The translations under genes and the position numbers were made by a program. This document shows positions 4,335 to 64,000 of a stretch of 64,000 nt of DNA, piece by piece (the first letter of the stretch is position 1; each line of letters begins with the position of its first letter). Source of the stretch: Escherichia phage vB_EcoM-UFV13. The stretch lies in the sequence record NC_031103.1; one strand, written 5' to 3'. The notes below the pieces were generated by a model. It did not search any database, had not been told where the DNA came from, and worked only from the letters and a program-made list of their open reading frames with translations.

Positions 4335-4603
4335 TATTTAAAACGGATAGTCGAATCCTTGAAGAATAGACCAGAACACACAGTTCCTTCTACTTTCTGC
4401 CCGGTAGGTCCAATAGCACGAAATCCAGTATGTTGAAAATCATTTTCAGAGCAACCGAACCAGTTATATCCAGTGATTTCAATATTAGTAAAACCACTTG
4501 AAGACAAAACTTTGGTTGCATTATCAGCATCAGTACATCCTGCTAAAGATACTGCTAATACTAATGCCGCGATAGAACGATTAACATATTTCATAATTTT
4601 CAC
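4334..4603 (-). CDS. predicted lipoprotein
   Basis: Signal peptide ending in lipobox LAGC; stop followed by CUUCGG hairpin. Confidence 0.5.
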   Translation of the reverse strand: MKIMKYVNRSIAALVLAVSLAGCTDADNATKVLSSSGFTNIEITGYNWFGCSENDFQHTGFRAIGPTGQKVEGTVCSGLFFKDSTIRFK

Positions 4604-29413: not shown

Positions 29414-30373
29414 TCACTTCCACTGCATTTCACATGCTAACTGAATGAAAAGATAAGCTAAATGCAATTCAGTATTAGCTGCAATACCATGATACTGATT
29501 ATTTTCGCCGACAATTTCGTACATACGAATAATACTCTGTGGAGTTACACGTGAATAGATTTCTTCGGCAAGTTTACCCACGAACCACGAATAATCGGCT
29601 GCATATTTTGGTGCTAAAGCTCTGAGTTGTTTAACATCTTTATTTTTGAGAGACTCAAGAACATCATCAATAGCACCACGATCGTTAGTAACCAGTGATA
29701 AAATACCAGCATCCAAAACACCTTTAGATGAATAACTATCGAGCTCGCCAATAGTTTTACGAAAATCAGGAAAATTCTTTTTAACCAAAGCTGCTACAAC
29801 TTTCATATCAGCTATAGCAATTCCTTCATGCTTGCAGATTTCAGTCAATCGACGAATCATCTGCTTCATCATTTCAATTTTATCTTCATCGGTCGGTTGA
29901 CCGAACGTAATAACTCGACAGCGTGACTGAAGTGGTTTAATAATACCATCAATATTGTTAGCAGTAATAATAATACTACAGTTTGAACTATAAGCTTCCA
30001 TAAAGGAACGAAGATGTCGCTGAGATTCTGCTAATCCTGAGCGGTCAAATTCATCAATAACGATTACTTTTTGACGACCATCAAATGAAGCTGCACTTGC
30101 AAAATTAGTTAAAGGACCACGAACGAAATCAATTTTACAGTCTGATCCATTTACAAACATCATATCAGCATTTACATCATGACACAATGCTTTTGCTACA
30201 GTTGTTTTACCTGTTCCTGGAGAAGGAGAATGAAGAATAATATGTGGAATCTTACCTTTACTTGTAATAGATTTAAAGGTTTCTTTATCAAAGGCGGGAA
30301 GAATACATTCATCGATAGTAGATGGACGATATTTCTGTTCAAGAATGTGTTCTTTTTCATTTACGGTAATCAT
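29414..30373 (-). CDS. 44: clamp loader ATPase gp44 (AAA+)
   Basis: ATG at 30373 gives 319 aa MITVNEKEH...; Walker [11 protein letters not shown]. Confidence 0.9.
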
Positions 30374-61542: not shown

Positions 61543-61708
61543 TTTATTCTCTCTAAATTTGGGCCATTCCATGGCGCATGAATTGTCCATTTCTGTATTT
61601 ACCCATTACCGCACTTGGGCTCGACCTTATTACAGGTTGGCGGGAATCCCTCACAGAATCATGAGGTCCAGCTTGTTCCCATTTTATTTGAATGTAAATA
61701 GGTCTGAG

Positions 61709-62284
61709 TTAGGAATTACGGGCTGCATTAGCAACGGCGTAAGCGTACTGAACATTAGCGTCTTTAAACGTACCTTTAGAGGTATCTATTTCTGCCTTAA
61801 AGCCGCCTTTAGTCATAACATCGGCAAATTCTTTACGGAAAGCCATTGCATCAAGACTTCTCCATGATGATTTGTGCTTGGCGAATTCAAGACCAGCGTA
61901 GTTGACAGCCTTAGCTAATTTATTATCAATAACCCATTTACCAGCTTTAGGCACAAACACCGGGCCTTTCTGTTTAGAGAATAGTTTTAAATTCCAGCGA
62001 CGAAGGTCACCGTCAGCTTTAACAAAAGCTGCGTCCAAATTACTAGCAACAACATCTTGAATATGGCCAAATTTAAGCCCATCAACTTCAATATTTAGAT
62101 CGGTACGCCAGCGAAGTCCTTCCCAAGCGAAAGCTTTAAAGTCAGAAGCTTTTGTAGCTAAGTATCGTTCAATAGGGGCTGTTTTAGGGTCAAAGCCGTT
62201 TCCTCGGTAAGTCCACTCATCTTTATTAATGCCTTTGGCCTTTTCCACAGAAGCTTCAGCGATAAATTCTTTATACGTTTTCAT
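61709..62284 (-). CDS. internal protein with capsid targeting sequence (IPIII-like)
   Basis: 191 aa; N-terminal MKTYKEFIAE. Confidence 0.7.
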   Translation of the reverse strand: MKTYKEFIAEASVEKAKGINKDEWTYRGNGFDPKTAPIERYLATKASDFKAFAWEGLRWRTDLNIEVDGLKFGHIQDVVASNLDAAFVKADGDLRRWNLKLFSKQKGPVFVPKAGKWVIDNKLAKAVNYAGLEFAKHKSSWRSLDAMAFRKEFADVMTKGGFKAEIDTSKGTFKDANVQYAYAVANAARNS

Positions 62285-62298
62285 GTGTTTCCTTTATT

Positions 62299-62613
62299 TT
62301 ATTCTTTAGGGAAGTTTTTAGAATATGCATCATAAAGCTTATTTCCAATACGGCGGAAAACTCTAGCCGCAAAACGATTTTCAGGGTTTTTAATCATGAT
62401 TTGCATCATGTAAGTTCCTGCATCCGAAAGAGCTTCTTCATAGTACCCATTAATTTCTTTAAGAGTCCTACGTTTACCACCAGGACCATCAACAGTAATT
62501 TTCCATTTACCTGTAGAAGTGCGGCTCGGTGGTTCAACTTGTTCAATCCAAATATAACCGCCTTCAACGCGTTGTCCGGCGGATTCTGCAATAAATTCTT
62601 TATATGTTTTCAT
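62299..62613 (-). CDS. internal protein with capsid targeting sequence (IPII-like)
   Basis: 104 aa; N-terminal MKTYKEFIAE; own early promoter. Confidence 0.7.
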   Translation of the reverse strand: MKTYKEFIAESAGQRVEGGYIWIEQVEPPSRTSTGKWKITVDGPGGKRRTLKEINGYYEEALSDAGTYMMQIMIKNPENRFAARVFRRIGNKLYDAYSKNFPKE

Positions 62614-62643
62614 TTTTGTTTCCTTGTTTGTTTTGATAGAGTA

Positions 62644-62673
62644 ATTATACCATATTAATACTTAAGCGTAAAC
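62644..62673 (-). promoter_or_regulatory. early promoter upstream of IPII-like gene
   Basis: GTTTAC-18-TATAAT. Confidence 0.55.
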
Positions 62674-62676
62674 AAT

Positions 62677-62935
62677 TTAAGCTTTACCGCCAGAAATAAT
62701 TCCGAAGTTGTTAAAATCGTATCCAATATCGTCAACATCTACTTTAGTACTTGCTACAACATAAGCAATTTCACTACGTTTTGCATAGGTGTTGATTTCT
62801 TTACCATCGCCACCTAAGAAAGTACCCATTACGTTTTAATGAGCCAAAGTCTTCCGCATCACCAATGAAAGCTTTAACTTTAAATTTAGGACCTTTGGCA
62901 TCTGCTTCAACGATAAATTCTTGATACATTTTCAT
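62677..62935 (-). pseudogene. internal-protein-like gene with apparent +1 frameshift
   Basis: MKMYQEFIVE... terminates after 44 codons; reading continues in another frame to 62677; shift near C-run about 62825-62827. Confidence 0.45.
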
Positions 62936-62941
62936 TTTTCC

Positions 62942-63355
62942 TTAGTAAATTGATTTACCATAGTATTTGTACCAAGTCGGACGTTGAGCAATTTTTTCAT
63001 CTAAGCGTGCTTGACTTATCGCAATGGACGCTTCAGACGGGACGTAATTATTACGAAATTCTACAGGAATGTCGGAAATATCCTGGACTGTCGTGTCCTT
63101 GATTTTGAAACCACGTTTCAAACATTCAGCGATTAGCTCGATTTGACGTAAACGTAAAAATTCGAGTTTGTCGTAAAAGAATGTTACGTGACCTGTGCCT
63201 AAGATAAATGTTGGAGAGATTTTAAAATCCTTTACACGTTTACCGTTTTGAACATGTTTACGGACTGCACCAAATACGCGTGGTAATTCACGATACTCAG
63301 CCATAAGATGTTGGTCGGTCAGTTCAGAAACAAGTGTTAAATTGATACGAGTCAT
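62942..63355 (-). CDS. denV: endonuclease V (pyrimidine dimer DNA glycosylase)
   Basis: ATG at 63355 gives [12 protein letters not shown]...; matches T4 endo V. Confidence 0.9.

Positions 63356-63413: not shown

Positions 63414-64000
<587 letters not shown>

Follow-up and report, generated by a model that had tools for sequence, protein, structure and literature searches.

The minus-strand segment 62677-62935 of the analysed stretch (64,000 nucleotides of Escherichia phage vB_EcoM-UFV13, hereafter the window) is, as read from its sequence, a single gene: the UFV13 orthologue of RB69ORF125c. This gene belongs to PHROG 2667, an internal-head-protein family, and is frameshifted by the absence of a TT doublet that every relative examined has retained. 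The resulting allele was found in no other phage, and the same gene has been disrupted recurrently and independently in other phages. We consider it probable that the UFV13 allele reflects a recent, genuine and private pseudogenisation of a non-essential gene for an injected protein. The coordinates of the relevant features are collected in Table 1.

Table 1. Positions of the disrupted gene, its parts and its neighbours in the window.
Feature	Position	Strand	Details
IpIII-like internal virion protein, intact	61709..62284	-	191 aa, PHROG 5341, E 1.6e-116
Ip10-like gene, intact, CTS-bearing (MKTYKEFIAE...)	62299..62613	-	104 aa, PHROG 3966; downstream of the broken gene
Sigma-70/T4-early-type promoter-like site	62644..62672	-	TTTACG-17-TGnTATAAT, extended -10, 10/12 matches; consensus match only
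Frameshifted RB69ORF125c orthologue (PHROG 2667, internal-head-protein family)	62677..62935	-	86 aa if TT present
ORF2	62677..62829	-	ATG 62829 to TAA 62677, +1 frame, 50 aa: MGTFLGGDGKEINTYAKRSEIAYVVASTKVDVDDIGYDFNNFGIISGGKA
ORF1	62801..62935	-	ATG 62935 to TAA 62803-62801, 44 aa: MKMYQEFIVEADAKGPKFKVKAFIGDAEDFGSLKRNGYFLRWRW
Two-frame overlap	62801..62833	-	33 nt open in both frames; contains GGG and UAC UUU CUU AGG U
TT deletion site	62822..62823	-	junction GGGTA/CTTTC on the coding strand; relative to every relative examined
Capsid-targeting sequence (CTS), MKMYQEFIVE	62906..62935	-	Y4, F7 and I-V-E gp21 cleavage motif; read from the sequence
denV (endonuclease V), upstream gene	62942..63355	-	from the annotation of relatives
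Internal head protein, intact, CTS-bearing	63414..63695	-	93 aa, PHROG 3499, E 1.2e-46; between e and denV

Two reading frames and a missing TT doublet

Reading of the minus strand, together with the list of open reading frames, resolved the segment into two ORFs of 44 and 50 codons that lie in different frames and jointly span 259 nt, or 3n+1. The coordinates, the hand translations, the length of 259 nt and the stop after 44 codons that had been given in the preliminary description were all correct when rechecked. The first 38 residues of ORF1 are authentic, and the remaining six, FLRWRW, are read out of frame. ORF2 starts at a fortuitous ATG located 29 nt inside ORF1, which is preceded by CATTAAAACGTA (upstream letters CATTAAAACGTAATG) and has neither an SD sequence nor a capsid-targeting sequence. 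In profile searches, ORF1 matched positions 1-43 of phrog_2667 (E 1.2e-10) and ORF2 matched positions 48-79 of the same profile; moreover, each of them aligned end to end with intact 86-aa orthologues. Since consecutive parts of one family profile are matched, the two ORFs represent one split gene rather than a chance arrangement.

The nature of the split became apparent from the alignments. Compared with AV110, moha, RB69, FL44 and Pu-Krd-SF1/SF5, the window contains a single clean gap of 2 nt in DNA that is otherwise 98-99% identical. What is missing is a TT doublet between 62823 and 62822, in codon 39 and 2 nt 3′ of a coding-strand GGG at 62827-62825: the relatives read GGGTA-TT-CTTTC (Tyr-Ser-Phe) or GGGTA-TT-TTTTC (Tyr-Phe-Phe), and the window reads GGGTA-CTTTC. 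A comparison with the orthologous locus of related phages had been recommended in the preliminary description, and it is this comparison that revealed the 2-nt gap (GGGTA--CTTTC). A megablast search with positions 62600-63000 returned 204 phage records, most of them 95-99% identical, with a matched stretch that was 2-3 nt longer than the query. Restoring the doublet converts the sequence at 62827-62818, GGGTACTTTC, into the intact junction GGGTATTCTTTC and yields an intact 86-aa protein, MKMYQEFIVEADAKGPKFKVKAFIGDAEDFGSLKRNGYSFLGGDGKEINTYAKRSEIAYVVASTKVDVDDIGYDFNNFGIISGGKA. By tblastn, this repaired protein is 94-98% identical to the products of intact genes in more than 100 phage records, including RB69ORF125c, and its residues 1-84 match phrog_2667, "internal head protein", with an E-value of 1.2e-20. 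The full-length match to PHROG 2667 is thus a property of the repaired protein, whereas the frame as it stands in the window is interrupted after 44 codons. The residues K34, R35, N36, G37, Y38 and F40 that surround the break are invariant in the homologues from Escherichia, Shigella and Salmonella phages.

The frame switch had originally been placed at the G-run. While the position assigned to the GGG was right, the alignments show that the run itself is unchanged and that the lesion is the loss of TT 3′ of it. A homopolymer error at the G-run, which had been proposed as one explanation, is not supported by the same alignments, as the run has the same length in the window and in the relatives examined, and the TT doublet is what differs. 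It had also been foreseen that one G fewer would give an intact 85-aa ORF. This does restore the frame (...RNGTFLGG...), but at the cost of the invariant Y38 and F40. As a candidate repair, the removal of one G was rejected, since it turns Y-S-F into T-F and does not recreate the ancestral state.

An internal-head-protein-like gene downstream of denV

The window is a segment of a T4-like phage and, between rIIA and e, runs collinear with Escherichia phage W143. On the minus strand, the order of the genes is nudE, e (lysozyme), a gene for a 93-aa internal head protein, denV, the broken gene, an Ip10-like gene and an IpIII-like gene. The ATG of the broken gene follows the stop codon of denV at a distance of 6 nt, and its SD sequence is provided by the TAAGGA at this position. 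The orthologue of the 104-aa downstream gene in phage JS09 is annotated as "Ip10". The broken gene and the Ip10-like gene are separated by a 63-nt spacer, in which we noted a strong, near-consensus promoter-like site. Because of this site, expression of the downstream genes need not depend on read-through, and the Ip10-like and IpIII-like genes should therefore, as far as the sequence indicates, escape polarity. Two further features of the neighbourhood were recorded. The stop codon of e overlaps the ATG of the gene for the 93-aa internal head protein at 63692-63695 on the minus strand, and the same 4-nt overlap is present in AV110 and moha; this overlap suggests that the 93-aa protein is translationally coupled to e. 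In addition, a comparison of window positions 61590-61709 with W143 (29482-29784) showed that the window is devoid of ipII, which W143 carries between the vs.8-like gene and ipIII, W143 being about 530 bp longer than the window at this position. This agrees with the published absence of ipII from UFV13 (PMC5931544).

Three characteristics of the sequence mark the product as a putative internal protein, namely an N-terminal CTS, a gp21 motif and a location in the variable e/denV/ipII-ipIII region. Previous work on T4 showed that 10 N-terminal residues of IpIII are enough for packaging, that residues 4 and 7 of the CTS matter for targeting and residues 8 and 10 for processing, and that the gp21 prohead protease cuts after L/I-X-E at the end of the CTS (PMC9026906). 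In the UFV13 protein, gp21 is predicted to cleave after I8-V9-E10, with Ala11 as the next residue (MKMYQEFIVE/A). The same CTS pattern opens three neighbouring small genes, two of which have MKTYKEFIAE. By analogy, the PHROG 2667 protein would be packaged and injected and could have an anti-defence role, "internal head protein" being the label under which it is annotated.

A Pfam search gave no match for this protein, and a PDB sequence search gave no significant match, including to IPI* or to the mature domains of Ip2/Ip3. AlphaFold modelling of an intact orthologue on a shallow alignment resulted in a model of moderate confidence (pLDDT 70, pTM 0.62). The model consists of one compact alpha/beta domain (beta-alpha-beta...alpha-beta), in which strand 2 begins at the break; according to this model, neither half should fold alone. 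Foldseek comparison of the model with the PDB gave nothing significant (best E-value 0.6), and a search of BFVD with the model retrieved orthologues only. One of the BFVD matches was A0A192YBS2 of Morganella phage vB_MmoM_MP1, a structural homologue of 96 aa that is 30% identical (Foldseek E 3e-7). The RB69ORF125c family therefore reaches beyond the phages of Escherichia, Shigella and Salmonella to a T4-like phage of Morganella.

Probable origin and possible expression of the disrupted allele

The disrupted allele was searched for at several levels. When a 111-nt query centred on the lesion was used, 153 phage records matched and none reached 99% identity; among the 60 matches listed of these 153, all spanned 113 nt. 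A 47-nt junction query had no match in 50,697 phage records. Similarly, a 33-nt junction was absent from IMG/VR and the JGI metagenomes; as a positive control, the intact junction was recovered from IMG/VR. Neither ORF1 nor ORF2 had an exact protein match in the assembly index. In a protein-cluster search, the ORF2 product proved identical to the 50-aa protein ANA50157.1/YP_009290391.1, which is annotated as "internal head protein [Escherichia phage vB_EcoM-UFV13]" and known from one contig of 165,772 bp.

An allele present in only one deposited genome could have arisen during assembly, with the phage itself carrying an intact 86-aa gene and the TT doublet lost in the de novo assembly or in the manual re-assembly. 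Indeed, the genome of UFV13 was "opened" and then manually re-assembled with SeqMan, and both halves of the gene are free of further disabling mutations, an observation that fits a very recent event and an artefact equally well. Against an artefact stands the sequencing itself: Illumina reads, which have a low indel error, were obtained on the HiSeq 2500 to a depth of 570x, and SeqMan NGen was used for the assembly (PMC5146434). Furthermore, the loss of a 2-bp TT doublet is not a homopolymer miscount, and the locus lies more than 60 kb from the point at which the contig was re-opened. As a check on the quality of the window as a whole, every ORF of W143 was translated and compared with it by tblastn. 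Single HSPs covering at least 90% were obtained for 111 of the 117 W143 minus-strand ORFs of at least 60 aa, spanning 55.2 kb, and the remaining partial matches could be traced to ORF starts that were over-extended, to alternative-frame ORFs or to the edge of the window. The TT deletion was the only in-gene frame break relative to W143 across the 64-kb window, which leaves about 55 kb of compared coding sequence without any other. A single-base indel relative to W143 at about 4598-4600 breaks a W143 plus-strand antisense ORF of 186 aa; it is located in a 4-nt spacer between two minus-strand genes and has no coding consequence. As the doublet is missing from deep Illumina data and the 64 kb are otherwise clean, a real mutation is likelier than an artefact. 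We therefore infer that the deletion is biological, and we regard an assembly or consensus error as unlikely.

Provided that the deletion is real, could the locus still produce something useful from its two frames? One possibility, raised in the preliminary description, is that of two overlapping small genes, that is, a targeted peptide of 44 aa and a separately functional protein of 50 aa, the latter being annotated in GenBank as "internal head protein". Both ORFs do start with ATG, ORF1 retains the full CTS and its SD sequence so that a processed peptide of 34 aa could be packaged, and ORF2 appears as a CDS in the database record. However, ORF2 starts within ORF1 and is devoid of the SD and targeting sequences, both ORFs are fragments of one compact domain as predicted by the model, and no relative has this arrangement, so that there is no sign of selection for a two-gene layout. 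We consider it very unlikely that two functional genes are present. A +1 ribosomal slip that partly rescues the gene, for which the overlap of the two frames is the only suitable stretch, would involve either UUU_C (tRNA-Phe, moving from UUU to UUC) or the CUU that precedes AGG (tRNA-Leu). Either slip would lead to the same near-full-length product of 85 aa (...RNGYFLGGDGK...), one residue shorter than normal. The tRNA-Phe(GAA) can re-pair perfectly from UUU to UUC, no Arg codon is rarer than AGG in the genes of the window (1.08 per 1000 codons), and a slippery P-site codon beside a rare A-site codon is found here in UUU_C and CUU_AGG_U. Other observations speak against a rescue of this kind. 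The motif is an out-of-frame reading of a sequence that is in frame in all relatives, and is as such an accidental by-product of the deletion; the two-frame arrangement is unique to UFV13 and has no conservation among relatives (phage collection, IMG/VR, JGI metagenomes). The residue that would be lost belongs to the most conserved motif, and the only SD-like stimulatory element seen is the GGG, 3 nt upstream of UUU. The RNA near the possible slip has a structure comparable to that of shuffled sequence (z = -0.52). Moreover, T4-like phages including UFV13 have their own tRNA-Arg and tRNA-Leu, which reduces the codon "hunger". It is highly improbable that such slippage partly rescues the gene, and the probability that the deletion created a +1-prone GGG UAC UUU CUU AGG U at which slippage occurs at a useful rate, so that the 85-aa protein is still made and packaged, is lower still. 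In that case, hungry-codon frameshifting would maintain some function, and the locus could be called a "leaky pseudogene". Of the three options that had been envisaged, a real pseudogene of an internal-protein-like gene is consequently the best supported, the gene being the RB69ORF125c/PHROG 2667 orthologue with its capsid-targeting sequence.

For such a pseudogene, we propose the following course of events. By analogy with T4 Ip1-3, the intact protein would enter the prohead core, lose its targeting peptide to gp21 cleavage after I-V-E10 and be injected with the DNA into the host, where it would probably act as an anti-defence factor. Upon the loss of TT in codon 39, ribosomes that start at ATG 62935 would follow the authentic frame only as far as Tyr38 and terminate six codons further on, giving a 44-aa product with the targeting peptide, 28 authentic residues and the out-of-frame tail. 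Lacking both an SD sequence and a targeting sequence, the 3′ half would no longer be usefully translated. As ORF1 keeps its SD sequence, start codon and CTS, the phage may continue to produce the 44-aa precursor, and this peptide, 34 aa long once cleaved, might even be packaged. The pseudogene would be tolerated because internal proteins are non-essential accessory genes of the host-range type and because the downstream internal-protein genes appear to have their own promoter. If the phage was propagated on a host without the cognate defence, the loss of such a gene would be expected.

Recurrent decay and comparison with known systems

The same gene is damaged in other phages as well. An independent AA insertion about 30 nt downstream of the TT site, which changes ATCAAC to ATCAAAAC, is fixed in eight genomes from two laboratories (FL44, FL23, JM10 and Pu-Krd-SF1/2/5/6/7, from Danish and Russian collections). 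It is located at locus positions of about 440-450 in FL44 and Pu-Krd-SF1/SF5, and the records concerned annotate only a 5′ fragment of 59 aa. JS09-type phages (JS09/PhAPEC2) retain an in-frame remnant of 38 aa, MKMYQEFIIEAEAKGPKVDVDDIGYDFNNFGIISGGKA, which occupies positions 601-717 of the JS09 locus and has its own PHROG, 35655. In phage 236Ecol005PP, the RB69ORF125c orthologue has a C-terminal frameshift, and the ENA/Logan assemblies contain more truncated forms, including one whose frame shifts at the G-run itself, as well as a denV-ORF125c deletion fusion. Based on the AA insertion in eight genomes, the JS09-type remnant, the 236Ecol005PP frameshift and the truncated ENA/Logan forms, the gene is demonstrably expendable. 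The allele types that we came across also include a remnant fused to upstream sequence, a fusion of the denV N-terminus to the C-terminus of the gene, an in-frame deletion between two "KR" repeats and a KV duplication. The ORF125c locus thus looks like a hotspot for deletions and indels.

In T4, Ip1, Ip2 and Ip3 are non-essential, and each of them inhibits a different GmrSD type IV restriction enzyme (PMC12373910); more than 10 Ip families are known from the T-even phages (PMC12373910; PMC3012670). With the TT deletion, the list of independent inactivations of this small gene, which has been broken or trimmed time and again in T4-like phages, grows by one. Such repeated loss fits the view that internal proteins are host-specific and expendable cargo for counter-defence, dropped when the target is not met. 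We read the private and probably recent 2-bp deletion as a case of ordinary decay at an accessory locus that evolves fast, and it matters little beyond annotation hygiene: in the public UFV13 record, the 3′ fragment of 50 aa is entered as a CDS for an "internal head protein", and the locus should instead be marked as a disrupted gene. For a phage that has been proposed for therapy, the host range may, by analogy with the T4 proteins, narrow slightly on strains with a defence that is countered by this protein.

In relation to known systems, the broken gene is closest to the RB69ORF125c orthologues of Mosigvirus, some Tequatrovirus and the Salmonella S16-like phages, which likewise directly follow denV and have the same SD sequence, start and CTS-bearing N-terminus. 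These orthologues are intact in more than 100 genomes, whereas the UFV13 frame is broken at codon 39 by a private deletion of 2 bp. The decayed alleles of other phages (AA insertion, JS09 remnant, 236Ecol005PP) are similarly the result of independent inactivating lesions in a gene of 261 nt, in phages that are otherwise viable. They differ in lesion and position and are common to several isolates, while the TT deletion is known from a single genome. The programmed +1 sites of E. coli prfB (CUU_UGA_C) and yeast Ty1 (CUU_AGG_C) share with the UFV13 motif, CUU_AGG_U after UUU_C, the combination of a slippery codon and a slow codon, but the UFV13 motif is not conserved and shows no evident SD-like stimulator beyond the GGG. 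With T4 IpI, IpII and IpIII, which are non-essential, CTS-bearing and gp21-processed inhibitors of GmrSD that are injected, the gene has no detectable sequence similarity beyond the CTS. It does share with them the 10-residue CTS MKxYxEFIxE with Y4, F7 and the I-x-E site, the small size, and the location in the hyperplastic e-denV-ip region.
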